Positions 3,739 to 60,817 are shown, numbered from the whole stretch's first letter. The stretch: DNA of 63,771 nucleotides, filler included, from Aduncisulcus paluster (GCA_024181965.1; 9 parts of 9 records of this genome joined end to end with filler, not necessarily neighbours in it), one strand, 5' to 3'. Program-made: numbers and translations. Notes: generated by a model from the letters alone, not told the origin.

Positions 3739-4102
3739 GATCAGTACTATATTGTGATCCTTTTGGATGTGAATGAACTTAATAATGCTTTGAAAAGATA
3801 ATTTGGACATTGGAGGATATTGATTGAAATCTCAATTCCACCAAACCAAATCCCATTTGGCAATCAACTCTATTTTCATGTAATTTGAATAGTGTATTTT
3901 TGAATATAGCAAGAATTTCCTTCAATTGTTTTATTTTAGATCTAAAAATTCTGATTGTATCAGACCTCTCAAAAAAATACCTTCCAAATCTGGTTTGAAA
4001 TTAGTCCGTTTTCAAACCTTCATAAACAAAAAGTAAAATGATGCAAATGTGACATTTCAAATGTCATCTCTGACTATCATTAATCATTAATGACTCATTA
4101 TA

Positions 4103-5410
4103 TTAAAATCTAACTTCAAATTTCCCAGCACGAATGATATATTTGACTCCTTTGAAGAATTTATACTTTTCACGGCTGAGGGTAAGTTTGCGGATGTGAA
4201 GTCCACTTAGACTGCGTTTTTGGACACAAGAAAACCTCACAGAGGCGACAGGGAGCTGTTTTGGTTTCCCCTCTCCTTCTTCATTCTCAATAATAACTTT
4301 TAACTCTGGCTTTAAATCGGATGACACAGAACCCACTTTCCACTCAAGAACACGGGCCTTGATATCAACGGCTGTCTTGCCAGTGTTAACGTCTACGGTA
4401 CCGATATTAATACCCTCGCCCATGGGGATTCGAATGGTCACACCAGAGGCCTCATACCCACCACGAGTGCCACAAGAGAGCTTCAAACGACCACTCTTGT
4501 TCTTCCCATTCCACATGACGGTGGGAGTTGTATAGAATGGGATGGCAGCAGACATGCGTGCTGATCTGTACGATAACAGGCGAGAAACACCATCAGGAGG
4601 GATGAAAGACACGACCTTTTGCTCCTCAAACCTTTTGAGACGGACACATGGGTGTAAGCAACAGTCAGAAAGAGCAGAAGGATCAGAAAACTCCAATAAA
4701 AGATCCGGAGTTCCAGATAAGTTGCACTTCATGTCGATATGACCACGGACAGAAGCACTCGATGAGACACCACTTGAATCGATCACGGCATCAACATTCT
4801 CAACAATATCAAAATAGACATTATTTCTGGAATGAGTAATTCCACCTCCTCTCCAAGGAATGGCAGTCATACACTCAGTGGGGAGCTTTTTATCATGAAT
4901 CTCTTCAGTGGCACTCTTGGCAGCAGAACGTGAGGTTGGATCAACGAGAGTGGAAATAACATTAGGTTCAGTATTCATGGGATGTCCTCCATCACAAATC
5001 TCATCAATTAGCTGATATACAGTAATAAAGTTGTCCTTTAAGACCTTGGCAGTAACATCATCGAAATAAAGACGAGCTAAACCAGAAATACGATGTAAAA
5101 ATGTGATAACCATCATAGGAGATGATTCTTCATCAGTAATGGCAATAAACTGGACATCTTTGACAGATATAGGGATTACATAATTAGCTCCGAGTTCAAT
5201 GATAGGTTCTCCTCTATGATCACTTTCAAAAAAGCGAGTAAGGATAGACCGATCAATCACACCAAAGAAATGCCTTTCAGCGATTACATTTCTAACATAC
5301 AGACGTGAAGAAAAATAACGATTGTAAACGATCGTTAGAAAATAGAATAACCCAAAAAATAAATAAAATACATACTGAGCGGAGTCCACTACAAAAATAC
5401 TCTTTATCAT
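4103..5410 (-). CDS. AP3M: AP-3 adaptor complex mu subunit; exons 5410-5376 and 5291-4103
   Basis: Spliced N-terminus MIKSIFVVDSAQ|NVIAERHF; motifs KDNFITVYQLIDEICDGG, IPWR, NNVYFDIVE, HPCVRLKRFE..SFIPPDG, YKFFKGVKY..AGKFEVRF. 84-nt GTATGT..TTAG intron. Confidence 0.9.
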   Translation of the reverse strand: MIKSIFVVDSAQYVFYLFFGLFYFLTIVYNRYFSSRLYVRNVIAERHFFGVIDRSILTRFFESDHRGEPIIELGANYVIPISVKDVQFIAITDEESSPMMVITFLHRISGLARLYFDDVTAKVLKDNFITVYQLIDEICDGGHPMNTEPNVISTLVDPTSRSAAKSATEEIHDKKLPTECMTAIPWRGGGITHSRNNVYFDIVENVDAVIDSSGVSSSASVRGHIDMKCNLSGTPDLLLEFSDPSALSDCCLHPCVRLKRFEEQKVVSFIPPDGVSRLLSYRSARMSAAIPFYTTPTVMWNGKNKSGRLKLSCGTRGGYEASGVTIRIPMGEGINIGTVDVNTGKTAVDIKARVLEWKVGSVSSDLKPELKVIIENEEGEGKPKQLPVASVRFSCVQKRSLSGLHIRKLTLSREKYKFFKGVKYIIRAGKFEVRF

Positions 5411-5657
5411 TGTGTCAAATTCACCCTTTATTTTTTCCGAACGGTATGTTTGATAATTCACTATCATATGTAATTTAGAAATGGATTTCATACATACAAG
5501 TGACTATAAGCATCTTTTTTGTTTGATATTTAAAATTTGTGCAACTCCTTCAGTGAACTGAAGTTCACTTTCATAGCATTGAAAGTTTCAAAGCAAGTAA
5601 TTTCTCTGATAGATAGCACTTTAATCCATTTTTTGAAAGCACCATCTTTGCCCTTTT

Positions 5658-6165
5658 ATGGATACCAATGCTCCAATCTTCTATGATTTCGTCTTCTCCG
5701 AAAGTTACAGTCTACACCCATTGTGTTGGAATCTGGATAAGCTCTCATCCCTCCTGTTCTCTCTTGCCATTATTCCCATACTTGCCCTTCTAGAGGAATT
5801 GATGCCTCCTATTGAAATGAAAGATGCTAATGGCTCAGTTGTTGCAGTAGTCCCGCGTGTCATAGCCTATCTTGATGATTTAACCCTGATTATAAGATCC
5901 ACTGATGAACTCAGAAGCATTCTTAGTGCTATCAAAGGTATTTTACCTGAGTTACCATCTTGAGCTGAACCGCGACAAGACTATCAATATTCCTCTGGCC
6001 CTGGGACCTCTTCCGGCTACAACAGAGGAGGATGACTTTGCTGTGGAACGGTTCCATGATGTTATGGGGGTGCCAATCTCGTCTGATGAAGAGATTCAAG
6101 CAGCTGTCGATTCCTTAGAGCAGACCTTCAAGGTCCAAGTTGGAAGTGGCAGTTACGACATCTGA
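5658..6165 (+). mobile_element. Degenerate non-LTR retrotransposon RT fragment (CRE-like YLDD type), frameshifted
   Basis: LSSLLFSLAI…VIAYLDDLTL, then a frameshift to LELNRDKT…VMGVPI. Confidence 0.7.
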
Positions 6166-6229
6166 GTTCTTGGATTTGCAACCATTCCATTATGTTTTCG
6201 AGACTGTGATTCTCAAACTCTCTTACCTC

Positions 6230-6358: not shown

Positions 6359-6374
6359 TTAATAAGTGTAATTA

Positions 6375-7016
6375 AATGATAGTAGATCAGATCTACTCGA
6401 TCTATAGACATTTCTCATTGTTCCTGAAATAAATATACAATAAAAATCCAGAATATCGTAATTTAATACATATTAAATAACAAAAGAACGGCAAATTATA
6501 GACTTATAATGGCTGGATGTGTGTGAAAATGTATTTTCCACTCTTTTGCCGAATGCAATCATTTGAAAGGACAACGAGCTCCTTAGCAAAGATCAAAGCA
6601 CATTCATCAGCTCGGACTGAAAAAGAAAAAAGAAAAAAAGAGAGGGAAAAGGCCGCTATCGTTTTGGTTGCTGATCACCTCGCTANNNNNNNNNNNNNNN
6701 NNNNNAATGATAGTAGATCAGATCTACTCGATCTATAGACATTTCTCATTGTTCCTGAAATAAATATACAATAAAAATCCAGAATATCGTAATTTAATAC
6801 ATATTAAATAACAAAAGAACGGCAAATTATAGACTTATAATGGCTGGATGTGTGTGAAAATGTATTTTCCACTCTTTTGCCGAATGCAATCATTTGAAAG
6901 GACAACGAGCTCCTTAGCAAAGATCAAAGCACATTCATCAGCTCGGACTGAAAAAGAAAAAAGAAAAAAAGAGAGGGAAAAGGCCGCTATCGTTTTGGTT
7001 GCTGATCACCTCGCTA
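6375..7016. other. Assembly artefact: 20-N gap (6686-6705) with duplicated flanks; ORF 6517-6738 is spurious
   Basis: 6375-6685 is identical to 6706-7016. Confidence 0.9.
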
Positions 7017-8689
7017 GAAATGGATATATGGGGGCAGCAAGGGCCCTCCAATCTGAAACAGGAATAAGTTTGAGTGAATTTTCGGTTTGTGATAATGTGG
7101 ATCTGTTAATTGCTTTGCAACAGTATGAAGAGTATCAAGAGCATAAATTCGGTCGTCGGCCTCATATTATTAAAATGCGTCCCCAAAGCGCATCTTCATC
7201 GAGGATTAAAGATCCTAAACGAAAAGGAGCTCTCCCGAATATTCCCAAACATTCTCTCTCTCGGTCTTCCTCTACTTCTCATAGTTCGACTTCTACCAGA
7301 TCTTCAACTCCACAAGAAGAGAAAGGTTCTATCAAAAAAGGCGTTGATTTTGCATCTAGAAAGGCCAAAGCAGGAAAGATTCCTCCAAAGGGTTTTATGG
7401 ATGGATTTACAGTAATTCCTTTAACTGGGCATTCAATTCCTTCCCGATCATCCCAAAAAGAGTCTGTGTCGGTGCGATCTGAACATGATACGCATCCCCA
7501 TAGACCTGAACCAAGAGATAATCCTCCACATAACCCTAGAAAGCATATTAAGGTATCAAGTGGAGATTCTGTATCCGATATTCCATTGATGCCATCCCTG
7601 CCTCCGTCATTGCGTGAAGCTTCTGATTTACATGGTCTAGCCCAAGTTATTCAGCGTGATATTTTCTCCAGAAGTCCAGGGGTGTGTTGGGAGGATATAG
7701 TTGGGTTAAACGATGCAAAAAGGTTGTTAAAAGAAGCAGTTGTATTTCCATTGAGATATCCTCAACTCTTTACAGGTGTTCTTGAGCCGTGGAAGGGAGT
7801 ACTATTGTATGGTGCTCCAGGAAATGGAAAGGTATGTTATTTACATGTTATATTAGTGCGTAATTAATTAAATTTGATCCATTTAACTATATTTATTTTT
7901 ATATTGTTATTGTGTATCATATTTTTGGTGTAGACTATGCTGGCGAAGGCTGTTGCGACCGAATGCAATACGACATTCTTTAACGTCTCTGCAACGACCA
8001 TTGTGTCCAAGTTTCATGGTGAATCTGAGAAATTAGTCCGTGTATTGTTTGAAATGGCCCGAGCTTATGCCCCTTCGACCGTGTTTGTTGACGAAATTGA
8101 TGCTCTTGCTTCATTACGCTCAGGTGCAACTGAACATGAAGCCTCTCGAAGATTGAAATCTGAGCTACTCACACAAATGGACGGTCTTGCAAAATCCAAA
8201 GAACAGGTATTTGTCCTTGCTGCAACCAACTTGCCTTGGGAATTGGATTTTGCTCTGTTGAGACGACTTGAAAAAAGAATATATATCCCGTTACCAGATG
8301 AACCTTCAAGAAAATCCCTCTTACACAGATTACTGTCAGGACGAGTTAGGCCAGGTGTTGTTGATTCCGTCGATAAAGTTGCTGAGAAGACGGATGGTTA
8401 TTCCGCATCTGATCTTGTCACCCTCGCGAAAGAAGCGGCCATTTGTCCCGTGAGACGGTTTATGGGGAAGTTGGAGAGTATTGACAGCCACATAGATGCC
8501 GTGCCTTATTTACCTGGTAGCGATGATGTTGGACTTGCAACAGGGAAAGAAGAAAGTTCAGGAGGTATTCTGGTCGATTTGGGAGTTGAAAAGGAAGATT
8601 TAGAATTAGCTTTGAAAAGATCAAAACCTGCCGCTTCATTCGCCATGAAAAAGTATGAGCAATTTGGAGAAAAGTGCGGTTCGACATAA
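6848..8689 (+). CDS. KATNAL2: Katanin p60 ATPase-containing subunit A-like 2 (LisH + AAA); intron 7832-7933; start may be 6884
   Basis: LisH (LVADHLARNGYMGAARALQSE). Walker A GAPGNGK|T is restored by a 102-nt GTATGT..TAG intron. Also VFVDEID, EHEASRRLKSELL, ATNLPWELDFALLRRLEKRI. Confidence 0.93.
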
Positions 8690-8990
8690 TTATTTTGAAG
8701 ATAATTTTCATAGTTACAGATCAATATGTACTATTGAAATAGTATTTGTTGACCTCGAAAAGAATGAAGAGATTTAGTTATTGTAATTGATAATGTTAAA
8801 TAATAATTTAATAATTTAATAATTTAAATTATTAAGGACAAACTACTATATTGTACTATTGTGATTAATTCCATCACCAATCGTTGGAAGGAAAGGTTTG
8901 ATGCATTGCATTTGGCAAGAGCTTCATGCACACTCATGTGTTTCTTACGATCAAGCAGAGTGAGACATGAACACTTCACCATAGTAGTAG

Positions 8991-9015
8991 TATAGTATAG
9001 TATAGTATAGTATAG
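8991..9015. repeat. (TATAG)5 microsatellite
   Basis: Read directly from the sequence. Confidence 0.85.
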
Positions 9016-9333
9016 TATTGTATGATTTCAACATAGTCACCATCCTTCTTGTTTCTTATTCTCACTGAAATATCAGTTCTTCTTCATGTATTCTCTTTCT
9101 TCTAATACCTTGAACTTATTTATGAGAGATAGATTGCTTACTTTCTGACGAAGATAATGCATAAAGCGATGACAAAACAATTGGTCTGGGGTAGTAACGG
9201 TTCTTCGGAATGATGAGTATATATGCATATTAGTAATATGAATAGAGTTCAATATTTATTGGTTTTAAAAAATGTTCAACATTGAATTCAATGTATCGCT
9301 TTGCAAATTGGCAATTAGAAATTGCAGTAAATT

Positions 9334-11841: not shown

Positions 11842-12181
11842 CAAGAATATCGTCAGTACACCGAAAAAAAGATTCATTGGTTATTAATAGATCTAAGGGT
11901 TCATCCCTTATCATTTTTGTGTAATTGTTCATGTTTTTGGCTTTATAATTGAAAGAGGAATTTTTCAGGAAGAATTATTACGCCATATAATTCCAACAAA
12001 CCCCATCATGGGGTGTCAGGATGATCCTGCTCAGAACAAGCACAAACCTAAAACCAATAAATTAATTAATATTGATTTTAATACGTTGAATATTATCTAT
12101 TGTTTGGCTAATGTGATGATACATCTAAACTTGTTTCTACATTGTGATTGTCGATTTGTCACACACAGGATAAGATAAGAT

Positions 12182-14483: not shown

Positions 14484-14552
14484 GAGGTTGTAAGTTACAA
14501 CCTCTTTGAAGAGGAATATTTTTCCAAATATTCCTGGAATATCACGATAAAA
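14484..14552. repeat. Palindrome-rich dispersed element; a second copy lies in the opposite orientation at 49749-49811
   Basis: Reverse complement TTTTATCGTGATATTCCAGGAATATTTGGAAAAATATTCCTCTTCAAAGAGGTTGTA versus TTTTATCGTAATATTCCAGGAATATCTGGAATTATTTGGGAAAAATATTCTTAAGAGGTTGTA. Confidence 0.75.
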
Positions 14553-15154
14553 ACGTAGCTTAAAGTCACTGACTGGATGGCATCCGAATTCGAATTTCAT
14601 GACATTCTCTCTCCCTCGAATGCTTTATTTATGCGTGTTTTCTGATATCTATTTGAATTCGAACTTTTGGTACATTATTGTTCTTTATTTCATCGTGGAA
14701 AGGAGAGGATTCATCCAACGATTCGGAGTTCGAAATGTCTCGTTGTTCGGCGAACAAGTCTATTTTGCTGCATAAAAAAAAAATTGAAAAGACCAAAAAA
14801 TAGCATTGACATTTGTAATAAATGAGAGAATTAAAGATATAAACAGTTTTGCGACCGACGGTGGGACCGTGCAAAATTAAGCAAGCAGATAAAAATAAAA
14901 AAATAATAAATGAATAAGGGTATCATAGGATATTAATTTTAACGTTTTTAGAATATTGAAAAAGTCGCAGTGCGGCCGTTCATAAAATTTTCATTCAAAA
15001 CGTTGTAAGAGAGCCAAAATGAGGGGATCAAAAAAACGGGATGGAAATTGATTTTATTTAAAAAAGTAAATTTGCCTCTTTCATATTCCTGAAAGTACTA
15101 TAGGCCTACTCTCAACAAAATACTGTTTCTGGACTAAGAAAGTACCATAATATA

Positions 15155-16421
15155 ATGGAAGTTAAACAAGTCATTGGAATAGTCTATATTGTAATCGTGT
15201 GTATTGCCATCCTTGGTGCATTTTGGTGGCTTATTGGGTTGGACAAAGTTAAAATTGGAGAGTATGGAGTTCTCTACAATTCTGTGACTAAAAGAATTGT
15301 TGAAGATAAAACTGCTGGTCCCGGAAGACATTATGTTGGTTGGTTTAAGAAATATAGGACTTGGCCCGCCACTTACCTTACAATGGAACTTCTAAACGTT
15401 GTTGCCATTCCCCAAGAATCTACATTCACTAAATTTGATATCTCATTCCAATATACCTTGGATAAAGAATATGTCGCCACTATTTATTCCAAGTATATCG
15501 AGTTCGATATTTACGAGAATCGTTTGAAAGCTCAAATCAGAGATGGTATCCTCGAAGTCGTTGGAAATTACAAATACAACGAATTTTATACCTTGAGAAA
15601 CCCTCCCTATGACTCTGTCGACGATCTATGCTATGATTCTGAAGGCAATGAAAAAACATGTGTGAAAGAAGCGTTTTATGAAGAATTCCAGAATAAGTGC
15701 GAAGGATCTGCAGATGATGAAGGTCTTTATTGTGAGATCAAGAGTGTTCAGCTTCGTCGTATGTATTTCTCAGACACTCTCGAGGACAATATCGTTGCTC
15801 AGCAGGTTCTTGTTCAGCAACAAAACAATGAGAGCATTAGAAAAGATATTGCTGTTCAAGAACAAGCGCTTCAGGAAGTTTACTCTGAAACGGACCTTCT
15901 TGTCGCTCAGATTCTGTATGCCAAAGTGGAAGCCGACAACTCTGTCACTCCTGGATATTATGTGACTGGAAACCAGACTGTCTCGGATGGATATGGAACT
16001 GCTGTTGCCACTATCACTGCTTCTGAGCTTGAAGTTATTGAGGCTCTTCAAGACGCGGTTGATGGACCTGGTCTCACAGATGCTCAGATTCTTGCTTACC
16101 AAAAGGTTAGAATGGAAAGAGAGAAAGAACAAANNNNNNNNNNNNNNNNNNNNCTCTGAAACGGACCTTCTTGTCGCTCAGATTCTGTATGCCAAAGTGG
16201 AAGCCGACAACTCTGTCACTCCTGGATATTATGTGACTGGAAACCAGACTGTCTCGGATGGATATGGAACTGCTGTTGCCACTATCACTGCTTCTGAGCT
16301 TGAAGTTATTGAGGCTCTTCAAGACGCTGTTGATGGACCTGGTCTCACAGATGCTCAGATTCTTGCTTACCAAAAGGTTAGAATGGAAAGAGAGAAAGAA
16401 CAAATTGTTGTTGCCATGTGA
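15155..16421 (+). CDS. SPFH/Band-7 membrane protein (N-terminal TM); C-terminus duplicated across the gap at 16134-16153
   Basis: TM followed by VKIGEYGVLYN…GPGRHYVGWF…FDISFQY…EIKSVQLR. 15883-16133 is repeated at 16154-16404. Confidence 0.8.
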
Positions 16422-16708
16422 GTAAATTGTTGGTGAGTTTTTTTGACATAAACAAGACACTTATTAATATTTTCTTCAAGAAAATCTACAAGTTGTAGAC
16501 TCGTCGATCGACTACTTTCACAAGATGTCAAGGAATATTTTTGTTCAAATGCGCTATATTTATTTATTACCTATTGAATTTAACAGATTTAATTCGAATG
16601 CAAATATTGAAAAATCGAAAGGAAATTTTCGAGCATTTACATCATAAATTTTTTGAAGTAACCTTCTTTTTTCATAATTATATCATATATACATTTGAAT
16701 TCTATTGA

Positions 16709-18268: not shown

Positions 18269-18364
18269 GTTCAGTTGAAGGATTTATTGATTGTGACTCA
18301 CAATTTGTCCAAAAACAGATGAAATGATATTATAATAAATTATTATTAATAATATTATTAATAT

Positions 18365-21020
18365 TTAATGAATCGGAATCGGTTTTATGCACGGCAGAAG
18401 AGGAATAAGAGTCGATAGATCCGTCAGCAGAGAGTCAATAATAAATTCATGAGAACCTTCTTCGAGAGTGACAACTAATTGGTTGTCGGCATCTTTTGAA
18501 ATAGAATCCTGGATCACAGCGTGTTTCAAGGAAATACCATGTCTGAATAAGTTCCTAGTCTCAGAAGAATCAATAGAATCACTGGAATCGAGTATCTGAA
18601 TGAAAGTGGAATCATTAGAAAAGGACCAAGAGTCAAACCATTGTGCTGCAGGGTTGGTAAAGAAATTCGATGAACAGAAATCGATGTCCTCTTCAGCAAT
18701 TGCAAAAGAGGTATCTTCAGGATGCAATCATATCTGCGGTCGAAAGACCAGCTTCATCTTCATCTGTCTCAGTAAGCTCAATATTGGGACCAAGAGCTAG
18801 AGATACCAATAGACGACTGTTATCACGGTCTGATATCCCATTAGTTCTCATCGGTTACAGTCGTGGTACCTTCAAGCACACCATCAGCATCACTGATGCT
18901 TTATAGTGGCACTATTGGAGGAAGAAGTACTACTTTGAATAGTATTCAAACTAACCATATATTACTAATATACCTTCGCTCGTGACAATCAGATTGTACA
19001 TGGAACTGTTATCAGAGACAAGAGATGTGGGTTTAGTATGATAGAACAAATGGGAGTTCCGTTGAAGAGGTGAGAATGAGTGTCTTCTAGTCATCTTCTG
19101 GCCAGTAGAAAGTACGATAAGAGTACTCGAGTTGATGTAATACTTCTGCACTTCATAGAACTTCATAGAACATATGAACATACTGACTGCCATACTCATA
19201 CAGCTCCACCTCAGGTACAAAGCCAACCCATTCATCGGACGAGGGACGATTGTGAGTGGTAAATGCATATGTACTCAGAGATCCATCTTCAGCTTCATTG
19301 AGGAAGTGAGTAGAGAAAGAGTAATCGGTGACAACACCTTCAGAATCGGTTGTAGGGGTTGATGTTGGATGATTTCCAGAGATAATGCTGGGCATACATG
19401 GAACTTACGCATTTACAGCATTCATGGTTGGCAGTATCTCCATCAGTACAATCGACAGATGAACATGATTCAGACAAATTGAGTTCTCTATCGCATGAAG
19501 CAAGAGCTGTGGCATCAAAATTGTCAGGTTTGTCCTCACGTTCAATTTTAGTGTTAGAAATACATAATGCTGGGTCATCACCACTGCAATCAGAGAGATC
19601 AATACCAAAGACTTCAGAAGAATCTCCAAAACTAGCTAAACTTCCCCAAGACGATTTGTCAACTTGTGATTGTTTAAGAACAATTTCTCTTGCTCTCTCA
19701 CAAACAGTGTAATCGTTATATGGTGTGCCCTTAACGAAAGACACATACATCATATTATCCACAATAATAGCATTCTCACCAACAGAACTCAGATCAAGTT
19801 CCCTATCACCTGAAGTTATAGAGTACACGTCACCATCATAGTCAGTCACAGAAACCCAGAGGTCCAGGAACATCAACATAGGTGGAACTCTTATGAGTGA
19901 CGTTCGACTGGTATAGGACAATTGAAGAGTAAGTGTTGGAGCTTGCAGAAGGAATCTCAGAGCCAGTAGCTTGGAAAGTGATGTCTCTTCCATCAATAGC
20001 AGTAACAAGGCCTCGGAACAGACGGACAGTATCTCCATCGGCACTCTTTGTCTGCACAGTCATGGGTAGGGCTCCACCAAACGATTCGATGGCAGAAGTG
20101 AAGGAAGTCCAGGACCCATTGACCATTGTGACAGCTCTCAGGATACGCATTGTCTTCTGGGAAGTATCAGTGTACTGGTCGATGGATCCAATGGTAATGA
20201 GGAAAGATTGTTGAGAAACTGTTCCAATTAATGCGTCAGAAGTGCTAGAGTTGGTCCAAGTTGAGCTTACAAAGCCTTCACCACCCAAGATGCTACCACC
20301 ATCCTTGCCACGGAAACGTTCGACAAGGACTTCTTTATAGATGGCCATGGCATCGTTAGAAGGCGGAATCACTGTAGAAATGTCAGAAGTGGATACAGAA
20401 TGGGAAGAATCACCAATAGCCATGTTTACATAGTTAGAGGGTTTCATCGACAGAGAGAAACTGTGCATTATCTCCACTGGAATCAAAGAAAGAAAGGGGA
20501 TTGTGGAGAACTGATCGGCTTGTAGAGCATTGGAATGGATATGAATGTCACATTGAGCTTCTCCAAGAAGACAGTCTTTCTGAGCGCTTTTTAAATGGTA
20601 TGAATTCCCATTAGCATCATTATTCACCATGGAATGCGTGATTTCTTGATTAATATGTGATCCACCGTCGGGTATTGTTACAAATTGACCGTCAGTAGGG
20701 AAAGGAAGAGTCACGAAAGTTACTGCTGATTCACTCCTTGAAATGAGTACAAATCCTTCTGAAATAGCAGATTTAACAGAACCATCTTCTGTGGCGTTGA
20801 AAAAAGAATAGTCAACAGAAAGGATACCGTCATTTAGTCCAGCATACTTTATATATGCCAAAAGAGTTCAGATCAGATGAATAAATTGGGTATCGTGATT
20901 GTGTAATGTAGCATCTCCATCGACTATATCATATTCAATATGACAAACAAGTTGTTTGTATGATACAAATCAAATCATTAAATTGAACTTCAGAAAGATG
21001 ATAAGGGCTCTCAATCTAAT
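18365..21020 (-). pseudogene. 5'-truncated, multiply frameshifted paralog of the membrane protein at 50286-52499
   Basis: Near-identical DNA to 50610-52499 but broken into several ORFs; it also preserves C-terminal sequence missing from the other contig. Confidence 0.85.
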
Positions 21021-21373
21021 GAATATTAAAGGTTCCGAATCCATTTTTTTATAAAATTCTTTAAATTCATACAAAAAGGCGAATTCATTGTTGCTTGTCA
21101 CATCACAACGGTTGTGGACATTTAAGTCTTATTATCTGATACATGTCGAATAAAATATCCAGTAATATGATAATTTACTGCAAAAGTTTTACGCATATAT
21201 TTCTTCTTTCCGATGATAACGAAAAATGTCAATCCCATTGAATTAAAAGAAAAAAACAAAAGAATAAATCTATGAATGCAATAAAAATCAGATATAACAA
21301 ACATTTTGTATGACTATAGGATATTACATTATAGAAATGAATTGCGGGTTATATTATTGTCTTTTTTGTCAAG

Positions 21374-23856: not shown

Positions 23857-24751
23857 GAAAGTAATGGATTCTAAAAATAGAATAACAATCCATTCTTGAT
23901 TGTTTTTTAATATTTTATTTTTTTGTTGTTTTCTTTCTTCTTTTATCTTTATACATATTGACCAAATCGCTGATTAATTGTTTCGATTTTTTTTCTACAT
24001 ATTATATTATATTTATCTCTCTTTATGAAATTTTCATTTTCATATGGTCTCATTTTTTTTTTTTTTTGTTCTTCTCTGGCTTCGATGTTTATCCTCATTC
24101 GAAACCTTGGCTATTGATATCGAGATCTTTATATACATCAATATTATGTTGGATGCAATATACCATGCACACAAATGTTATATTATTTATTTGTTTTTTG
24201 CTTCGTATTCTATCTTTTTCGAAATATCCTCTCCACCTATTCTTCCTTTCTCAAGTCTATTTTTAGACTCATGGGGATGTTGATAATCATTTTTTATATT
24301 ATTCCATCTCTCTTTCAAATATTATTATATATATACTTTAATATATAATTAATATGGCATTGTTTTTTTTCCTCAAGCGTTTTTTATTCGATTTCTCTAT
24401 ATTTATTATTCTAAAATCTATTAATATTCGACCTTTTTTCTTTTTCTTTAAACTCTTTCAGCGAAATTTAATTCAAATTTTGAAAATTTTGAAAAAAAAA
24501 GTTTGTTTTTCATGAATTTATTTTAATTTAATTGTTTTTCCTTTGCAGGGAGCAATAAGATTGTAATGAATCATGAATCAGATTTTATTTTAAGTTTGAA
24601 TCAGATTTCAACAATATTCTTCCTTCTATGACTTCGACTGAGTCTTTGATACTCACTTTCTGATCTTTGTTATTCTCTTGTAGACAATAAACTCTACGAT
24701 ACTGTATTGTAAAAGATCCTTAAGCAAATTTAATGGATAAAGTCAGTGGAT

Positions 24752-40126: not shown

Positions 40127-40903
40127 TCTCCCAATATTTTTTCACACAAAATCTTAAGTATTTTTAAATAAAATAGTTTATTTGTTACATTTTAATTATT
40201 TACCATCATGATATATCCTCAATTCTATTTCGTAACTCGAACTTTCGTTTAGAAAATGCGTCGTGGATTTTCGTGGGCCACGAAACGAATTTCATCTCGA
40301 TATATACATAAAGTCAGCAACACTACCCATTCTCTACCAAAATTAACCTAATAAATCCAAATTTCTGTTGTAATTCCTTATTTATTCCACAATAAATGCG
40401 CAGTAGCACTCACAATCCCCGACATGTTATGTGAGCCATTTAGAATAGGCCGACATACAATACGATTCCACATCTTCAAACCATGGAGGGTTTAGGCAAA
40501 AAGACCGGTAAGACGAAGGATCATGGAGATGGTATCCGCGACATTTGAAAAAAACAAAAAGAATGGTTGAGACCTGAAAGGGTTTCAAATCCGATCATAG
40601 ATAAAAATTGCATGAAATTAAAAAGTCGAATAAATGTAAATAAATAAATCGAAAGAAAACACTTGATTGTGCAGTTCGAGAGAAAACAAAGAAAGGAAGG
40701 AAAAAGGGGAGAAAACGAATCAAGCTATCAAAGCAATAAATAAATTATATATATATAAATATATAAAATAACAAACCAAAAATATGAAAGATGCATCTTC
40801 ATAATGCAGACAAGAGAAAAAACCTATGTCAAAATAGACAGGAATACAAAAAGTAAACAAAGAAAGAAATCCGTGTGACACAACACATATTATTATTTGT
40901 GCA

Positions 40904-46435: not shown

Positions 46436-46944
46436 GGTTGAATTTTCCTTTTTTGCAATATCGATGATCAGACCTCAGTCCAGATAGCCTATCTCACTCT
46501 TTGTAAAAAGAGGACGTTTCATCTTTCAACGAGCATTCAAAACCATAGGTAACATATTCTTTCTTTTATTATTCTCAGGAAAAGTATTATTTTGTCAATA
46601 TCAGCATTGAACTTCAAGTCTTGAAGCATATTCTTCACTGAAAAATCTTCAGATTATTTGGGCTTTCTGAAGTCATGAGATCTAATACTTGGTTTATTAT
46701 CTAAAATTTAGATTATGACAGAATCTAAACACCTAGATTCTAGAGATTCTCTTAAGAAATGAGACTCTCATTAGAGGAAATTTGAATTCAATTCTTCACA
46801 CCAACTTTTCAAAAGTTACTTTTGATTTAGCTCCTCATAACCAGAACAAAGAAACACAAAAGTTTTGTGACAAAACAGTGTTTTGAAAACACTCATTTCC
46901 TTTGTTGTACGGTACCATACATTAATAGATTTATTATTCATTAT

Positions 46945-49748: not shown

Positions 49749-49811
49749 TTTTATCGTAATATTCCAGGAATATCTGGAATTATTTGGGAAAAATATTCTT
49801 AAGAGGTTGTA
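49749..49811. repeat. Second copy of the ~60-bp palindromic element seen at 14496-14552
   Basis: Alignment by eye. Confidence 0.75.
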
Positions 49812-50285
49812 CAATGAGGATGTTATGAATGACACAGTATAAAGAGAGGAATCAAATCAATAAATCCATGCCATTTTCTCCACAAAATGTTTTTTGACAT
49901 GAGATTAGATCTTTTATCATGTTTTATCCTCTTATTCTCATCGATAAAAAACTCATTCAAGAAAGAGCATAAAACATCATATGTCGATGTTTGGGAGTTA
50001 ATGTTTCAGTTAGAAATTAGCAGCAAAAATTCATTTGGTGGGAATCACTTTCAGTAAAATTGTATATAGCAACAAAATTAACTTGGCGAAGCAGAAGTTC
50101 TGGATAAAGCATTAATTTTGCTGGGATCGAAGATTTTATTGATTAAAAAAGAATAAATGGAATATGCAGTTATTTTTATTGTTGTATTATCTTTAATTGA
50201 CCTAGGAATGGAGCCACTGCTCGGATTTGACATAACCTCTTTTTTTTTTATTTTGATATCATAAATTTATTAAATATTTTAACAC

Positions 50286-52499
50286 ATGGGCCGTAAGCTC
50301 ATTCCCATAATGGTAAGCAACCCATTAACTCTTGGAAGGGTGGATGCTGAAGATATCAAGCATACAATGGCTTCAGGTTTTGCTGTTCAGAAAAAACAGG
50401 TTAAAGATCCATCTTATCTCGTTTGTATTTCATTAGCAATTATTATTTTATTTATTGGATTTATTGTTTTGGCCGTAGCCTCTATCGTCGGTTTTATTCT
50501 TTTCCAGCATCGAATGGGTCAGGAACCAGATGTTACAACCATTGTTATCGTTGAAAATGTTGCGAAATATGGTGATTATGTGATTTCTGAGTCAAATTTG
50601 GAGGATCATCAGATTGAGAGCCCTTATCATCTTTCTGAAGTTCAATTTAATGATTTGATTAGCGGTGGAGATGCTACATTACACAATCACGATACCCAAT
50701 TTATTCATTCATCTGATCTGAACTCTTTTGGTGGATCAAAATATGCTGGACTAAATGACGGTATCCTTTCTGTTGATATTCTTTTCTCAACACCACTAAC
50801 AGAAGATGTTTCTGTTAAATCTGCTATTTCAGAGGGATTTGCACTCATTTCAAGGAGTGAATCAGCAGTAACTTTCGTGACTCATCCTTTCCCTACTGAC
50901 GGCCAATTTGTAACAATATCCGACGATGGTTCACTTATTAATCAAGAAATCACGCATTCCATGGTGAATAATGATGTTAATGGGAATTCATACCATTTAA
51001 AAAGCGCTCAGAAAGACTGTCTTCTTGGAGAAGCTCAATGTGACATTCATGTCCATTCCACTGCTCTACAAGCCGATCAGTTCTCCCACAATACCCTTTC
51101 TTTCTTTGATTCCAGTGGAGATAATGCACAGTTTCTCTCTGCCGATGAAACCCTCTCCTCTAACTATGTAAACATGGCTATTGGTGATTCTTCCTATTCT
51201 GTATCCACTTCTGACATTTCTACAGTGATTCCGCCTTCTAACGATGCCATNNNNNNNNNNNNNNNNNNNNAATAATGATGTTAATGGGAATTCATACCAT
51301 TTAAAAAGCGCTCAGAAAGACTGTCTTCTTGGAGAAGCTCAATGTGACATTCATGTCCATTCCACTGCTCTACAAGCCGATCAGTTCTCCCACAATACCC
51401 TTTCTTTCTTTGATTCCAGTGGAGATAATGCACAGTTTCTCTCTGCCGATGAAACCCTCTCCTCTAACTATGTAAACATGGCTATTGGTGATTCTTCCTA
51501 TTCTGTATCCACTTCTGACATTTCTACAGTGATTCCGCCTTCTAACGATGCCATGGCCCTGTATAAAGAAGTCCTTGTCGAACGTTTCCGTGGCAGGGAT
51601 GGTGGTAGCATCTTGGGTGGTGAAGGCTTTGTAAGCTCAACTTGGACCAACTCTAGCACTTCTGACGCATCAATCGGAACAGTTTCTCAACAATCTTTCC
51701 TCATTACCATTGGATCCATTGACCAGTACACTGATACTTCCCAGAAGACAATGCGTATCCTGAGAGCTGTCACAATGGTCAATGGGTCCTGGACTTCCTT
51801 CACTTCTGCCATCGAATCGTTTGATGGAGCTCTACCCATGACTGTACAGACAAAGAGTGCCGATGGAGATACTGTCCGTCTGTTCCGAGGCCTTGTTGCT
51901 GCTATTGATGGAAGAGACATCACTTTCCAAGCCACTGGCTCTGAGATTCCTTCTGCAAGCTCCAACACTTACTCTTCAATTGTCCTATACCAGTCGAACG
52001 TCACTCATAAGAGTTCCACCTATGTTGATGTTCCTGGACCTCTGGGTTACTCTGTGACGGACTATGATGGTGACGTGTACTCTATAACTTCAGGTGATAG
52101 GGAACTTGATATGAGTTCTGTTGGAGAGAATGCTATTATTGTGGATAATATGATGTATGTGTCTTTCGTTAAGGGCACACCATGTGACGATTACACTGTT
52201 TGTGAGAGAGCAAGAGAGATTGTTCTTAAACAATCACAAGCTGACAAATCGTCTTGGGGAAATTTAGCTAGTTTTGGAGATTCTTCTGAAGTCTTTGGTA
52301 TTGATCTCTCTGATTGCAGCGGTGATGACCCAGCATTATGTATTTCTTACACTAAAATTGAACGTGAGGACAAACCTGACAATTTTGATGCCACAGCTCT
52401 TGCTTCATGCGATAGAGAACTCAATTTGTCTGAATCATGTTCATCTGTAGATTGTACTAATGGAGATACTGCCAACCATGAATGCTGTAAATGCGTAAG
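50286..52499 (+). CDS. Large type II membrane protein, 3'-truncated by the linker; 284-bp gap duplication (50967-51250 = 51271-51554)
   Basis: Short cytosolic N-terminus, one hydrophobic segment (aa ~44-73), beta-rich Ser/Thr/Asp ectodomain with a Cys cluster. Confidence 0.8.
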
Positions 52500-52599
52500 N
52501 NNNNNNNNNNNNNNNNNNNNNNNNNNNNNNNNNNNNNNNNNNNTTAATTAATTAANNNNNNNNNNNNNNNNNNNNNNNNNNNNNNNNNNNNNNNNNNNN

Positions 52600-53761: not shown

Positions 53762-54050
53762 TGAGTATTAGTCCGAATGCTTGAATTTATAGGAAATTCT
53801 ATTATTTCTTGAATTTTTTCTGCTAGGATTTTGTTTTACGACTTTGATCCGATTGTGACTCAGTGATTTTCGAATAAATCCCAAATTTGATATACTATGG
53901 CGCCATATTGGCAATAGAAATGATGACATCATATTCAATATGATGCACAAGTTGTGAATTTGATCTTCATTAATAATTACATCTTTGTGAATTATTGCTT
54001 AGAAATTATTCGTATTTGTTTTTTTCATAGGAAATTGGACGATATTGAGT

Positions 54051-55793
54051 CTTGAAGTGGCACAGAGTCGATTTTGACACTCCTTTTCGTTTTTTGTCGC
54101 ATCTAGGTGCTATTCGAAAGCAAAACAGTAATTTTTGTATTTTTTGACATACAATACCAATAATTTTCTGTTGTATGTTCATATTTTCTATTCTATGGTG
54201 TTTTATGAATGTTTGTCTCAGTCGAAGCTTATTTGTGTTGGTTGAAAATTTATATTTATACTATATATTCAATTTATTACATATTCGATTAAAATTTGCA
54301 GCCATTCACATAATTTACCTCCACCCCACAGATATTAGGGATGAGTTCATCAATATCTACTCAAATCGTGAAACCCGAATTTATTTATGAAAGAAACTGG
54401 AGTTGTTGTCCAATTCATGGAGGTGCCCCCAATATTATGAGTGCAAAGTTTCCAGCTATCAAAGCAATCGATGACACAAAGGAAGAAGGTGACGAAGAGT
54501 ACAATCAGAGTTTTAACGCACAAAAGATGATGAAAGGAGATTATGTTGGTGGATCCTTCACTCATATCTCCATTCCTTTCCCTTCATCTTCAGCGATGAA
54601 AGGTGCGTATATCTGTTTCGCTGATATGTTTCCTTCTGATATGCCTCCATCCCATCTTATCTTCACTTTTACATCTTCAAAAGGCGAAAAAATATCCAAG
54701 AAATACGATTTTCCAGCCAAAATGAGTAATTTTCAATGGTTCTTCCTTCCTGTTGATCTCCCTGATGTTGTTCTGTGTGAGATTACAGGGAAAGGAAAAA
54801 GAAAAGATTGTTTTGGCATCCGAGTGCTCGTTTTCTTTCGAGAAGAAACCCCTGAAGAAATTAAAGCTCGTAAAACCAGAGAGAAACTATGGTCTGAAAC
54901 TCCTGTTGTGAAACCAGAGTTTGTTAAGGAAGGAGATTGGAAATCTGAAGGTAGAGATTCAATTCCCATTCCACGTGATAATCCAAAGCTTGTATATCCT
55001 TCATTCTCAATGGTTAAGTGCAAGGTTGAATGCTATAATAAGGAATCTAAGAAGTATGATCAGAGTTCAGAAGCACAAAGGATGTTAAAAGGGGAATATT
55101 ATGTTGAATTATCCCATCTTTTCATCCCTTTTCCATCACCAAGTCCTATGAAAGGTGCTTATATCTGCTTGGATGAAGAAAATAGTTCACCCTCTCTTCT
55201 CTTCACTTTCACTGATTCTGATGGTAAGAAGACATCCAAGAAATATGAATTCACAAGACCTAAACATATTTTTGAATGGCACTTCCTTCCTATTGATTTG
55301 GATAATGTTGTACTGTGTGAGATTGAAGGGAAAGGAACTTGGGCCGAAAAGAATAGTCGATGTTTCTCTATCTTCTCCCTTGTTTTTATGATGCCAGATG
55401 AAACAGTTGTGAGTGAACAACTATCTCAACTTCCATGGAAATAATCCAAGAAGGTTATCTCATTTCCAACCTGGTGGCAGTTTTTGAAGAATGATATATC
55501 ATTATGATATATATCACATACAACTAGGTCTATTTCTACTAGAATTTGATCCCTACCAGGGAGAGTCCATTGCAAACCATATATTGATTATTTATTGGAT
55601 CATAGTCATGAATAAATACTTTTAATGCATCAAATTGAATGGTAGAAAATCCTTGAAGCGGCACAGATCGATTTTGATGTTTTTTTCTTTTTTGGTCGCA
55701 TCTAGGTGATATTCGATATCAAAATTGTTATTCGTTGTATTTTCTAATCATCTGATTCGATACAGCACCAATAATCCCTTTCTTGTATGTTCA
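54051..55793. repeat. Diverged ~130-140-bp direct repeats (54051-54181 and 55652-55793) flanking the 54341 gene
   Basis: Both copies contain CTTGAAG.GGCACAGA…TCGATTTTGA…GTCGCATCTAGGTG.TATTCGA…ACCAATAAT…TTGTATGTTCA. Confidence 0.8.
54341..55444 (+). CDS. Lineage-expanded family protein made of two tandem DOC/APC10-like beta-sandwich domains
   Basis: Internal duplication (VKPEF…HxxIPFPS.SxMKGAYIC…PSxLxFTFT…KKYxF…WxFLP.DL..VVLCEIxGKG); intronless. Confidence 0.75.
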   Translation: MSSSISTQIVKPEFIYERNWSCCPIHGGAPNIMSAKFPAIKAIDDTKEEGDEEYNQSFNAQKMMKGDYVGGSFTHISIPFPSSSAMKGAYICFADMFPSDMPPSHLIFTFTSSKGEKISKKYDFPAKMSNFQWFFLPVDLPDVVLCEITGKGKRKDCFGIRVLVFFREETPEEIKARKTREKLWSETPVVKPEFVKEGDWKSEGRDSIPIPRDNPKLVYPSFSMVKCKVECYNKESKKYDQSSEAQRMLKGEYYVELSHLFIPFPSPSPMKGAYICLDEENSSPSLLFTFTDSDGKKTSKKYEFTRPKHIFEWHFLPIDLDNVVLCEIEGKGTWAEKNSRCFSIFSLVFMMPDETVVSEQLSQLPWK

Positions 55794-56115: not shown

Positions 56116-56620
56116 NNNNNNNNNNNNNNNNNNNNNNNNNNNNNNNNNNNNNNNNNNNNTTAATTAATTAANNNNNNNNNNNNNNNNNNNNNNNNNNNNN
56201 NNNNNNNNNNNNNNNTATTGATTTGTGCAAACGTTTCTTTGTCCATCATCAAACATATTAATATTATCTCCTCTGGGCCTGCGCAACCCAGGGGAGGTGA
56301 TAATAATATTTTGATGCTCTTTTCTTGTTTTTATAATGGTACGTTTCTGTTTCTTGATTTTTTTGGTAAATACCCCCAAAATGGAGTATACTCCAGGATT
56401 TTTATGTTTTTTTTGTTTGTTTTGTTTGTTTTCTTTATTTTAATATAATTTAAGCTAAATTAAAAGAGTAAATCTGACTCAAAATTATTGATCACGTTTT
56501 CATCCTTTAAACGTGCTTTATTTAAGATTCTAATAGTGCCCGAGGCCAAATAAACCGATATAAGACATATATTTAAGCTAAAATAGCTGTTAGAAATTTT
56601 TATCGAGATTACCGAAACAT

Positions 56621-56675: not shown

Positions 56676-56909
56676 TAAAACCGTTCGGCATTCAAAATGA
56701 ATACATTTTAGTTTTTTCTATCTATGTTGGACTTTTCATTTTGGTTTTCAAAAATTATTCCTTTCGGTTCTCAATTGGTTTTACTCACAAAAAGTTTCCC
56801 TGTGCCGTAGCTCCTTCTGTTTCTGGCCTTGAACAATCAGGAAGCCTTCCTGAGATTCCTACTGCTCCTGATGCTGTGTCTACAAATTTAGTGCGCTAAA
56901 GAACGCCGA

Positions 56910-57760
56910 GGTTTTTGATAAAACAATTGACAAAATCCTTGAGGTATGGCAAGCTCTGGTGGCCATAGGTTGGCCGATAAACTCTTTACTACTGTACTAT
57001 ACTGTACTACTGCAACTTCCCACATCATGCCTTGGATATGCAGATGATCTAATTGTCTTTGGCGATAACGCCGACGATTGTAACGAAAAACTGGCAATTC
57101 TAGCCGATAATCTGGAAGCATATGCATTTGTCATTAATCCGAGGAAATGTTTTGCAATTGCAAGTGATCAGCTCAAAATAGGAGACACGCTTATCCACCA
57201 AGGAACCGCTTCCGAATCCATGTATTTGGGCATCGGTATTGAACCGGGTACCCCCTTATCAGCAGCATCTCTTGAACAATACAAGCGTGCAGCCCAAGAG
57301 GCTCGTCGAATAATGAGTTTTCCCCTTCTCTTACCTCACCTTTTAGTTGCTGTGAACTCATATATAATTCCAAAATTCCTCTACACCGGATCATTAGGCT
57401 TCATAACACAACAACAATGTCAAAGAATCGACTCCCTCATAAAAGAAAAGCTCTGTAAGGCTTTAAGATGTTCTCCCCAGAGCTTTCCTCTATCATACAT
57501 ACATTCCAGCCGCTCGGACGGTGGTATCGGAATTATGTCACTCCAACAATCCATCGATGTCTCAAGAGCTTCCACATTCTTACAGCCACATCTGACACTC
57601 TCTTAAAAGACTCCTTTATAAACGATTTTCTCCCGCGAAAACAACACGAGTGGGTTGACGGAATCCCTGAACTCGTATACACACAAGGAGATATCGCTCG
57701 AGTCAACGATTCTGCCCCAAACATGAGAATACTGAACCTTAACTGGCTCCATACTGTGGA
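56910..57760 (+). mobile_element. Non-LTR retrotransposon RT fragment (R2/R4/NeSL-like), truncated and frameshifted
   Basis: GYADDL, INPRKC, MYLGI, VNSYIIPKFLY, YIHSSRSDGGIGI. Confidence 0.85.
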
Positions 57761-57792: not shown

Positions 57793-58302
57793 TTGAATAT
57801 TAGTAAGAATAATCATATTGTTTTAGGATTGAAAATTAAGATAAAGTACTTGAATGATAAAAGAATCTCCCTTCAGGCTGAAGAAGAGTTTGCAGTCATT
57901 GAAATGGATAGTACAAACCATAAAATACTAATCGGAGCTCCAATGATCATAAGGTTCAATTTGCTGGGAACGGACGGGATTAACGAGGATATCAGTGAGT
58001 TGGAAAAGGATATCACAGATGGTTTCGTGGAAATCCCGACAAACTTCGATCAACAAGAGGATAAGGGCTATATAATACAAAAATTCAAGTGTGAAAGGGA
58101 AGATATGCGAAGGGAGATATCGGAAATAATTATACGATATGAAAGGATAATAGATAGACAAGCACCAGCTAAGCTCGCACCCTTCATACTGAAATTGGAA
58201 AAAGGAAGCAAGGCGGTGAATATAAAACCTCGGCCAGTACCACTACATCTAGCACATTTAAGAGGAATGAGGGAAAGAGGTGAATTTATCGGTGTGTACT
58301 GA
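57793..58302 (+). mobile_element. Ty3/gypsy-like pol fragment (protease end to pre-RT region)
   Basis: EEFAVIEM…KILIGAP followed by PAKLAPFILKLEKGSKAVNIKPRPVP. Confidence 0.6.
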
Positions 58303-58975
58303 CTAGTTACAATTTACTGAATAAACAATGGACACAATGAGTTCTAAAAATAGAACGTGAGAAAATCTAAAAATAGAATATTATAGCACTAGTTATATCT
58401 CGTATATAACAGGTGAATATGAAAGACTGAACCCACAAAATTGTAATTTAAGCTTCATGGTTCAGCATATTATCCGATATTATCACCAAGCTTTGATGAG
58501 ATCATCGACGAACTTCCGAAACCAAAGGAAAATATACTTTCCCAGATCAAAACTGATTTCGAGAAAATAGGAATAATGAAACGAAAGATAGTTGGAATTG
58601 TACAGTATAGTATCGAGAGTGGTATGCTGATCAGATTCATACAAACTCATTTAAAAAGGCAATGAAACTTTTAGTATCTAATTTAAAAATATATTATGGA
58701 GTACTTGCGTTTAATCCGGCAACGAGAGATTCAACCATCAAGATTTTTCCAAGAAAGCTCAAGCATAGTATTAAAGCAGCTAATTTTTCAATATCACAAC
58801 GACAACGTAAGATTTTGAAGGAGTATTGTCAAGATATCAAAAAAAATCCGCAATTAGATATCAGAAAAGTGTTATATGCCGTTATGAGACGGTCAGGAAC
58901 CGGTTAGAAACGAGATTCTCAAGGGATCTATTTATAGAACGTTCAATGTTTATTCATCTTTAATAAATTGCTTAC

Positions 58976-59576
58976 CGCAACAATTTTGATCAAAATTTAG
59001 GTACTATTAGTGTTATGATTGGATCAAAGGACACCCCCAGGCTCACCCGATACGGAAAATACTATTTTAAAGTATTCAAGGATGCCTTCGTGGCATATCG
59101 TGCTCTCGGCGGCGAGGCACACATGTTTGCGCTTGTTGATCCCGATATCCGACAGTTATACGAAGACATACACGACGTAGAACTATTGAACCCCACGGAA
59201 TTAGATTTGGAGGAGATCAAATCAAACGAGAAAGAGTTTATTGACGGAATCGACAAGTCCTTCCCCAAAGCGTCAGCCCTGGACACCCTCTACGAGTTCG
59301 AGAAAGTCAAACTAAAGTTCGTGAACGAGAAAAGCGTGACCGTATACGCCAAGAAGTATCGACAGGTCCTATCAAACCTCGAACAGGGCGAGATCTTAAC
59401 AGAGGACACGATTGCTAAGAAATTCATTGCGCAACAATTTTGATCAAAATTTAGGTACTATTAGTGTTATGATTGGATCAAAGGACACCCCCAGGCTCAC
59501 CCGATACGGAAAATACTATTTTAAAGTATTCAAGGATGCCTTCGTGGCATATCGTGCTCTCGGCGGCGAGGCACAC
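58976..59576 (+). mobile_element. Gag-like fragment (59015-59443) in a tandem duplication with a 454-nt period
   Basis: LYEFEKVKLKFVNEKSVTVYAKKYRQVL…IAKKFIA is reminiscent of retrotransposon gag. 58976-59122 is repeated at 59430-59576. Confidence 0.5.
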
Positions 59577-60817
59577 NNNNNNNNNNNNNNNNNNNNNNNN
59601 NNNNNNNNNNNNNNNNNNNNTTAATTAATTAANNNNNNNNNNNNNNNNNNNNNNNNNNNNNNNNNNNNNNNNNNNNCTTCAACAATTATTTCATAAATAT
59701 TGGAATTTACTTTGCAAGAAATATTTGTTTCAAGAATATCGCCCCCATTCTTCTCATACCAAATGTATTAATAACTCATTCTATTGGTAAAGATCCTGAT
59801 CAATCCTCACATCATTCAAATAATCTTTCATGTTTTGGGGTTGAAATCATTTCCACCTGTTCAATTTCATTCCCTGAAAGAAAGATATGTTCGCCCTTTG
59901 AATCTATTTCGTTCGATACTCAAAAGCTCATTAAAGAAGTTGATCCTGGCTTTGACCCCATGGATATTCCCCAACACTCTTCGCTATTGAAATTATCTTC
60001 TCTTAAACAATTTATCGTTACAATGGATCTGAGAGATACAAGATCCATCATCTCGAAAGCTTATGACTTCATTGAATGTACAAGTGCATGCGTTGAGGTT
60101 CTGTTTGAAGAGGAGACATGTTCATTTGAGGGGTATGATCAGAATGCCTGGGAAAAGAATGTTCAATGCAAATAACTTGGCATGCCATGATACTTCTCTA
60201 TCCCAGCCAAGATGGATCCAAAATATTCCACTTCTGAGACCAAGAGAGATACAGTTGGAAACAATTCAATATACATGAAAATTTCATGAAATTAAGGATA
60301 ATTTACTTATACGGATAAAATTGATTCTTTTCCAAAGGTCTAAAAATCAATTTCAAATTTGAAATTTTCAAACATCCGATTACTTTTTTTTCCCTTTAAA
60401 AAAGGGTCCTTTTAATAATAATCTCATAAGATTTTCTCAAATTGGCTGAGTCCAAGTTGATTAAGGTAACATAACGTTGTAAAGATAAAAACATAAATAA
60501 TATGGATTTCACTGGATTCGATTCCAACAAATCTCTGCATTCGAAGTTTGAAGTTCAAAAGTGCAGACAGTGTTGCCGACGCAAAAATAAATGTAAAATA
60601 ATAATTGTAAAATAATAATTGTAAAATAATAAATACTCGTTGAAAGAGTCAAAACAATATAAGAATAAAAACATAAATTCCAAATCAATCAATCCAAAAG
60701 ATTCAATTCAACAAAAACGCAACTTTCTGGATTTCAGACTTGAAATGAAAGATGTGAATAACATTTAAATTGGTTATAAATAAAGAAAACAGGGAGCAAA
60801 AAACAAGGGAGATAACC

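Follow-up and report, generated by a model that had tools for sequence, protein, structure and literature searches.

Gene content of the window

Aduncisulcus paluster is a microaerophilic, free-living fornicate (Metamonada). We analysed a stretch of 63,771 nt of its genome assembly (GCA_024181965.1), hereafter the window, whose non-coding DNA is rich in short perfect inverted repeats interrupted by one central base, the pivot; we call them spacer-1 palindromes. The window is gene-dense eukaryotic DNA with long open reading frames (ORFs), mostly without introns, that encode AP-mu, a proteasome ATPase, eIF3c, a Sec7/BIG protein, kinesin-5, a tubulin-tyrosine ligase and others. The kinesin ORF matches an A. 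paluster protein in NCBI at 100% identity. Eight linker blocks, each composed of 44 N, TTAATTAATTAA and 44 N and carrying stops in six frames, show that the window consists of nine short contigs joined end to end. Contigs standing side by side are thus not implied to be adjacent in the genome, and ORFs that enter a linker are cut at a contig end. All counts, comparisons and polarised events reported here refer to this one 64-kb window of nine contigs. At each 20-N gap, the preceding 241-311 bp are repeated right after the gap at 99.6-100% identity; these duplicates are an artefact of assembly or scaffolding. The published A. paluster draft, obtained with Illumina/MaSuRCA from a library prepared without whole-genome amplification, comprises 29.4 Mb in 25,863 contigs, with an N50 of 4.6 kb, 39.1% GC and 11,743 introns (PMC9933649). 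Palindromes are not mentioned anywhere in that genome paper.

22116-22215, 26726-26825, 37639-37738, 41681-41780, 52500-52599, 56116-56215, 59577-59676 and 62511-62610: linker blocks
3191-3451, 6686-7016, 16134-16404, 36347-36616 and 51251-51554: 20-N gaps with their duplicates

Excess of inverted repeats at a spacer of one base

Perfect inverted repeats with arms of at least 7 nt were counted and classed by their minimal spacer, from 0 to 12. The counts over the whole window were 14, 40, 10, 2, 9, 3, 7, 10, 5, 10, 5, 5 and 7, respectively. In 60 dinucleotide-preserving shuffles of 500-nt blocks, spacer 1 reached 7.5 ± 2.7 (maximum 14) against the 40 observed; for arms of at least 8 nt, 14 were observed against 2.4 ± 1.5. 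ORFs of at least 100 aa leave 16,716 nt (26% of the window) uncovered, and 38 of the 40 spacer-1 palindromes fall in this remainder. Once the gap duplicates were masked, this non-ORF set held 16,256 ACGT bases and 36 spacer-1 palindromes, where 100 shuffles led to 3.1 expected (maximum 8); the density is about 1 per 450 bp of non-coding DNA. In the same set, spacer 0 was observed 9 times against 2.6 expected and spacers 2-10 from 1 to 7 times against about 2. Spacers 3, 4 and 5, with 1, 5 and 2 cases against about 2 expected, showed no excess. In ORF DNA, 2 spacer-1 palindromes were observed against 4.5 expected. Eight of the 9 contigs carry such sites, and an N run lies within 100 nt of only one of the 40. 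This one is the copy at 6712, located in an exact duplicate of 311 bp that adjoins a 20-N gap, which leaves 39 unique sites. Counts with mismatch-tolerant 9-nt arms were also tried; they were confounded by nesting and added little.

An initial annotation of the window had named eight of these palindromes, all of which we found where it had placed them, and had counted about 17 in intergenic DNA where chance would give a few. The excess is confirmed, but the number was too low, 36-38 being found outside ORFs. Likewise, the region 46612-46885, credited with five palindromes, holds nine when followed to 46893. The same annotation held that its interpretation would fall if spacer 1 showed no peak over shuffles and other spacers; a single sharp peak is seen in the window, and this refutation fails. 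The sites are as follows.

4050..4093: two spacer-1 palindromes with 8-nt arms and C pivots, in a convergent gap, 18-45 nt past the stop of AP-mu (- strand)
6381..6397: AGTAGATC-A-GATCTACT; its second copy at 6712-6728 is the assembly duplicate beside a 20-N gap
9226..9240: palindrome with a G pivot and 7-nt arms
12000..12029: ACCCCAT-C-ATGGGGT, then CAGGAT-G-ATCCTG
14484..14542: palindrome with 10-nt arms (14484-14504), then CCTCTT-TG-AAGAGG and ATATTCC-T-GGAATAT (14528)
14743..14757: palindrome with a G pivot and 7-nt arms
16469..16499: two palindromes that abut, one with a C and one with a G pivot, about 50 nt beyond the end of a Band_7 ORF
18290..18365: palindrome with a G/C pivot at 18290 and three overlapping AT-only palindromes of low complexity
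18886..18972: three palindromes with pivots C, G and C
20929..20969: three overlapping chained palindromes, in a 43-nt insertion of copy A (see below), absent from copy B
24475..24489: AAATTTT-G-AAAATTT
40269..40285: TTTCGTGG-G-CCACGAAA, 151 nt beyond the end of the Band_7 paralog
46612..46893: nest of 9 palindromes in the interval that separates the convergent TTL gene from a 712-aa ORF
46855-46893: zigzag chain within this nest, with G pivots at 46862, 46869, 46878 and 46885
49759..49773: ATATTCC-A-GGAATAT, homolog of 14528 in inverted orientation, in a common segment of about 65 nt
53927..53945: 9-nt-arm palindrome that has 16 nt in common with the 20929 chain
55494..55512: 9-nt-arm palindrome, 59 nt beyond the end of an ORF
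56837..56853: TCAGGAAG-C-CTTCCTGA, just upstream of a reverse transcriptase (RT)-like ORF
60274..60372: two spacer-1 palindromes, which form short zigzags with the spacer-0 palindromes next to them (60280, 60349)

Genes with a Band_7/SPFH domain are present on two contigs (15104-16421 and 39050-40126, both + strand), and a spacer-1 palindrome is located 50-150 nt beyond the end of each. The palindrome at 27274 is probably inside a short exon near 27250-27410, which is followed by a probable AT-rich intron (27410-27560), a GTATGT...TTTAG stretch.

Anatomy of the palindromes

The spacer-1 excess in non-ORF DNA depends on arm length: it is nil at 4 nt, about +12 at 5, +11 at 6, +21 at 7 and about +9 at 8, and falls to +2 at 9 and +1 at 10. 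The typical palindrome is thus of the 7+1+7 type (15 nt). Its pivot is G or C in 25 of 36 cases, against a background of 31.7% G+C (p = 4.9e-6). This share is 23/36 for arms of 5 nt, 15/19 for 6, 15/23 for 7 and 10/13 for 8 or more, and the bias is absent at arm 4 (28/75). The arms themselves are AT-rich (24.9% GC), most so in the three pairs adjoining the pivot. A 'G:C clamp' just past the arm ends was considered and dropped, such pairs being found in 26 of 36 palindromes against 67.5% expected (p = 0.34).

Palindromes frequently occur in chains: 13 of the 36 overlap or abut a neighbour, while random placement gives 2.4 and none of 2000 trials reached 13. In the chain 46855-46893, every arm repeats the 6-8 nt before it in inverted form, and G is the pivot in all four cases. 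For short direct repeats separated by gaps of 0-10 nt, the excess is a flat 2-4-fold, without any peak. Around the 36 palindromes we found no flanking direct repeat longer than 3 nt, the longest being 0 nt in 22 cases, 1 nt in 10 others and 3 nt in the remaining 4, which does not exceed chance.

The sequence contexts (±40 nt) are unique within the window for 32 of the 36 palindromes. The sites 14528 and 49759 have 31 nt in common at 93.5% identity, and 20929 and 53927 have 16 nt in common; the earlier statement that the arms are unrelated therefore applies to all palindromes except these two pairs. Their likeness across loci, together with the presence of RT-like and possible hAT fragments in the window, could point to tiny mobile palindromic elements or transposon termini scattered between genes. 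We consider this very improbable, given the uniqueness of the other contexts and flanks that do not resemble target-site duplications (TSDs). Moreover, the palindrome at 14484 is made from the sequence of its own neighbour, as described below. Miniature inverted-repeat transposable elements and other small mobile palindromic families combine shared sequence with TSDs, a combination that is not seen here. The ORF 56872-57606 (+ strand) gives a weak RVT_1 match (E = 3e-6, under the Pfam cut-off); this RVT_1-like ORF and the hAT-like ORF 37248-37637 (- strand), both at contig ends, are probably decayed fragments of mobile elements.

Position relative to genes and folding

Hairpins at the 3' ends of transcripts are known as signals from bacterial intrinsic terminators and from the mimivirus hairpin rule, and in these systems, as here, unrelated palindromes are concentrated between genes, especially convergent ones. 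Convergent gaps hold 5.2 spacer-1 palindromes per kb, divergent gaps 1.5 and clean tandem gaps 1.8, some palindromes lie 18-60 nt beyond stop codons, and ATATTCC-N-GGAATAT has remained intact in two diverged copies. These observations would fit functional elements, either hairpins at transcript 3' ends or sites for a dimeric DNA-binding protein. However, 9 of the 19 convergent-gap sites fall in a single gap, and most genes have no palindrome nearby: of 25 ORFs of at least 200 aa, some of which are exon fragments, 4 have one within 100 nt downstream and 8 within 200 nt. The stems, unlike those of known 3'-end signals, are weak and AT-rich. For a 3-nt loop, the RNA folding energies have a median of -2.3 kcal/mol; 12 of 36 palindromes are at or below -3, 8 are above -1 and 3 are unfolded. 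The earlier statement that a 1-nt loop makes a poor RNA hairpin is broadly correct. The window contains no match to an Rfam family and no tRNA. In addition, the arms are unrelated and palindromes arise by insertion within a pseudogene. A function thus appears improbable, and the view that the palindromes do not form a binding motif is sustained: they behave as mutational products and share no motif.

Palindromes arise as insertions of inverted self-copies

The window contains two copies of a gene to which no Pfam family could be assigned.

19404..21022, - strand: copy A, frameshifted paralog (pseudogene), inverted with respect to 50606-52499, 88-97% identity
50606..52499, + strand: copy B, open-reading-frame paralog without palindromes, used as the reference state

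Copy A differs from copy B by 53 mismatches and by 8 small indels of 1-5 nt, which break the frame and show that copy A is a pseudogene. The sole large difference is a tract of 49 nt in copy A that replaces 6 nt of copy B (net +43). This tract corresponds exactly to the three chained palindromes of 20929-20969, which are absent from the intact copy B. When its ±150-nt flanks were searched for a template of the 43-nt insertion, only 6-7-mers were found; the inserted bases are copies of one another. The insertion could also be read as a tiny intron (20925-20967, minus strand GT...AG, length kept without it). We rejected this reading as coincidental because copy A is also frameshifted by 7 other indels.

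A second event is seen in a segment of about 65 nt (14490-14560) that recurs in inverted orientation at 49750-49830. The homolog near 49.8 kb holds only the right arm of the 14484 palindrome. The left arm and pivot constitute an 11-nt insertion, in which the neighbouring bases are copied in inverted form and one further base is added. The adjacent ATATTCC-N-GGAATAT is present in both copies of the segment and is therefore older. Altogether, there are five non-coding paralog indels of at least 5 nt (43, 11, 5, 11 and 11 nt), each of which overlaps a self-complementary structure. The only coding one is a non-palindromic, in-frame, Glu-rich indel of 30 nt in the tandem duplication 21534/21840. 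Among indels between paralogs, self-complementarity is thus seen in 5/5 in non-coding against 0/1 in coding DNA. Alignments of 53860 with 55430 and of 6200 with 55000 showed homology only outside the palindromes 53927, 55494 and 6381, and are uninformative for these. This tandem duplication, of about 300 bp with 88.6% identity, lies at 21534-22115 inside an ORF.

These comparisons show that the palindromes originate by insertion of self-copies that are inverted about one base, often iterated. They persist only where selection is weak. We made a rough arithmetic estimate of their density at equilibrium, in which decay is any substitution in the 14 arm positions. One 3-palindrome event per ~1.6 kb at 3.4% divergence leads to one palindrome per 250-770 bp, a range that includes the density observed.

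The draft is very fragmented, and exact 241-311-bp duplicates surround its 20-N gaps, as might be expected if the palindromes were fold-back chimeras made during library preparation or assembly. Yet the library was not subjected to whole-genome amplification, the palindromes are internal to contigs, the duplicated copy alone being near a gap, and an artefact would not be expected to show a 19-fold bias toward non-coding DNA. Furthermore, one palindrome is inherited in two diverged paralogous segments. We regard an artefact as very improbable.

Comparison with transposase hairpins

The initial annotation had proposed that a distinctive break-repair or excision process, linked to a hAT transposase, writes the intergenic DNA. 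The insertions seen between paralogs support a mutational process writing the non-coding DNA; the link to hAT is not upheld. In this scheme, a hAT or other DDE transposase would close the flanking DNA into a hairpin with a 1-nt tip, and opening off the tip would leave a palindromic footprint. Hermes reportedly nicks with a 1-nt offset, and an odd palindrome that is perfect to its single central base has the geometry of a covalent cross-strand hairpin. Long P-nucleotide tracts (1-7 nt) are formed without Artemis, according to the available part of PMC2193825, and A. paluster belongs to a lineage without DNA-PKcs. The window also gives a hint of Dimer_Tnp_hAT at 37248, previously taken for a hAT transposase fragment, but this match is below threshold (E = 0.0086; 16.3 bits against a Pfam cut-off of 21.4). 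Moreover, no homologs of this ORF were found among longer proteins, and no palindrome adjoins it. The association of palindromes with hAT TSDs that had been envisaged was not found either: none of the 36 is flanked by a remnant of an 8-bp direct TSD, the longest flanking repeat being 3 nt.

The hAT target consensus would predict a preference between A-N-T and T-N-A at the centre, whereas the central triplets are A-N-T in 10 cases and T-N-A in 12, without preference. A single excision does not account for chains in which 3-5 arms alternate (X, X', X); these would require repeated cycles. The 43-nt chain in copy A contains three palindromes in one insertion and no transposon remnant, and one scar per ~450 bp would require massive excision. 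These data make a transposase origin improbable, to about the same degree as a function.

A proposed model of fold-back at DNA ends

We consider it probable that the palindromes are neutral mutational scars of a fold-back process at DNA ends, often repeated, and not signals. We infer that alternative end joining or fork restart is the setting, each event taking place at a DNA end that is broken or stalled. A single pivot nucleotide, in most cases G or C, would be placed there, followed by an inverted copy of the preceding 5-10 nt (mode 7), so that a 15-nt odd palindrome would be inserted. This step could be repeated at once on the new end, generating a zigzag X-n-X'-n-X..., before the end is rejoined. 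Selection would clear such insertions from coding DNA, and between genes and in pseudogenes they would build up and decay neutrally.

Palindromes that are perfect but for a single base have the shape given by one duplex end whose two strands are joined round its tip, and two kinds of writer can be envisaged. Our preferred guess, which we hold at somewhat less than even chances, is a low-processivity Pol theta-like polymerase that turns round at the end: it would add one base to a blunt end, then turn onto the complementary strand. A covalent hairpin cap opened off-centre, 5-10 nt from its tip, seems unlikely to us. The G/C pivot may reflect a preferred added base or a lesion site.

Ku70/80 and DNA-PKcs are absent from metamonads, as far as the available part of Salas-Leiva et al. 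goes, and PolQ is listed there, in Supplementary Data 2 as available, only for the free-living fornicates C. membranifera, K. bialata and Trepomonas. We can envisage, as a bolder and rather unlikely proposal, that the Ku-less A. paluster has an undescribed DNA-end processing which adds or retains a single G/C pivot and writes back the last 5-10 nt in inverted form, often serially, and which is a major generator of intergenic sequence. If so, about 5% of the non-coding DNA would consist of recognisable recent scars. Since the turn takes exactly 1 nt, the chemistry would be unlike classical Pol theta snap-back. For instance, a dCMP-transferase-like +1 addition could precede strand turn-around at the duplex end, or a domesticated nuclease could produce a cross-strand hairpin.

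Several observations weigh against reading the palindromes as fold-back scars. The G/C bias of the pivot is left unexplained by the model. A looped fold-back should leave spacers of at least 3 nt, none of which is enriched; this argues against classical snap-back in particular. Direct templated copies, which are expected of Pol theta, show only the flat 2-4-fold excess given above. The density in convergent (3'-3') gaps, 19 sites in 3,662 bp against 5 in 3,420 bp of divergent gaps, could mean function, though 9 of these sites are in one gap. The polarised events are few, 2 clear and 3 weaker, all in one 64-kb window, and the 11-nt case might, strictly, be a deletion in the other copy. The PolQ survey of Salas-Leiva et al. 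did not cover A. paluster. In the available text of a survey of 118,019 genomes, based on arms of at least 10 nt, eukaryotic inverted repeats peak at spacer 0 (PMC13155455). Finally, we found no prior description of a spacer-1 peak or of such a genome-scale signature in the literature.

Relation to known mutational processes

An inverted self-copy is common to Pol theta insertions, P-nucleotide tracts, template-switch mutations and the palindromes described here, which are set apart from these known kinds by their fixed single-base pivot, G/C bias, narrow arm length and density. In Pol theta end joining, as in the model proposed here, insertions are made at a break by copying 7-8 nt of the end itself in inverted form, and a few untemplated bases alternate with copy-back to give compound insertions; this pathway is expected to dominate where Ku is absent. 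Related Pol theta end-joining insertion studies are said to include those of Yu & McVey 2010 and van Schendel et al. 2016. In the available part of Kent et al. 2016 (PMC4912351), untemplated addition by Pol theta alternates with snap-back copies of 7-8 nt. The net insertion at the junction typical of alternative end joining is observed here (+43 in copy A, 11 nt at 14484). As for templating from nearby, inverted self-copies are present, copies from the ±150-nt flanks are limited to 6-7-mers and direct repeats are in flat mild excess. In contrast to Pol theta end joining, the turn is made on a single base without a loop, the pivot is G/C-biased and direct copies are not comparably enriched. A snap-back loop of at least 3 nt seeded by microhomology is not what we see, as the only peak is at spacer 1.

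RAG hairpins are not known to give an odd one-base tip, and the tip here is odd. Like the palindromes, hAT footprints and the P-nucleotide tracts of V(D)J coding ends and of Artemis/DNA-PKcs deficiency are flank palindromes perfect to the tip, and P-nucleotide tracts are longer when the dedicated opener is missing, as reported in the available part of PMC2193825. Unlike these tracts of 1-7 nt, the arms here are of 5-10 nt and form chains, and no recombinase signal or transposon was seen. Short template-switch mutations also create new sequence as a nearby reverse complement and form hairpins de novo (Loytynoja & Goldman 2017, PMC5453318, in its available portion). The model described in that portion has no preferred spacer and usually gives a replacement, whereas we observe net insertion (+43, +11), a fixed 1-nt pivot and narrow arms.

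If the palindromes are genome-wide, they would provide a fossil-like natural record of DNA mending in a eukaryote without classical end joining, readable from sequence. Arm length, one-base pivot and G/C bias would then be quantitative constraints on the enzyme. Such a process would make hairpin-forming sequence from nothing, a raw material for new regulatory or RNA elements, and a comparison of fornicates with and without PolQ would make the origin of the scars directly testable.

Other features of the window

An AAA-ATPase gene is split by a 66-nt gap ending in TAG (7868-7933), probably a short AT-rich intron. Intergenic short tandem repeats are located at 8985-9020, 8795-8835 and 60590-60640; their types are a 5-nt GTATA-type run, a TTAATAATT-type run and a 14-nt TGTAAAATAATAAT-type unit present three times.

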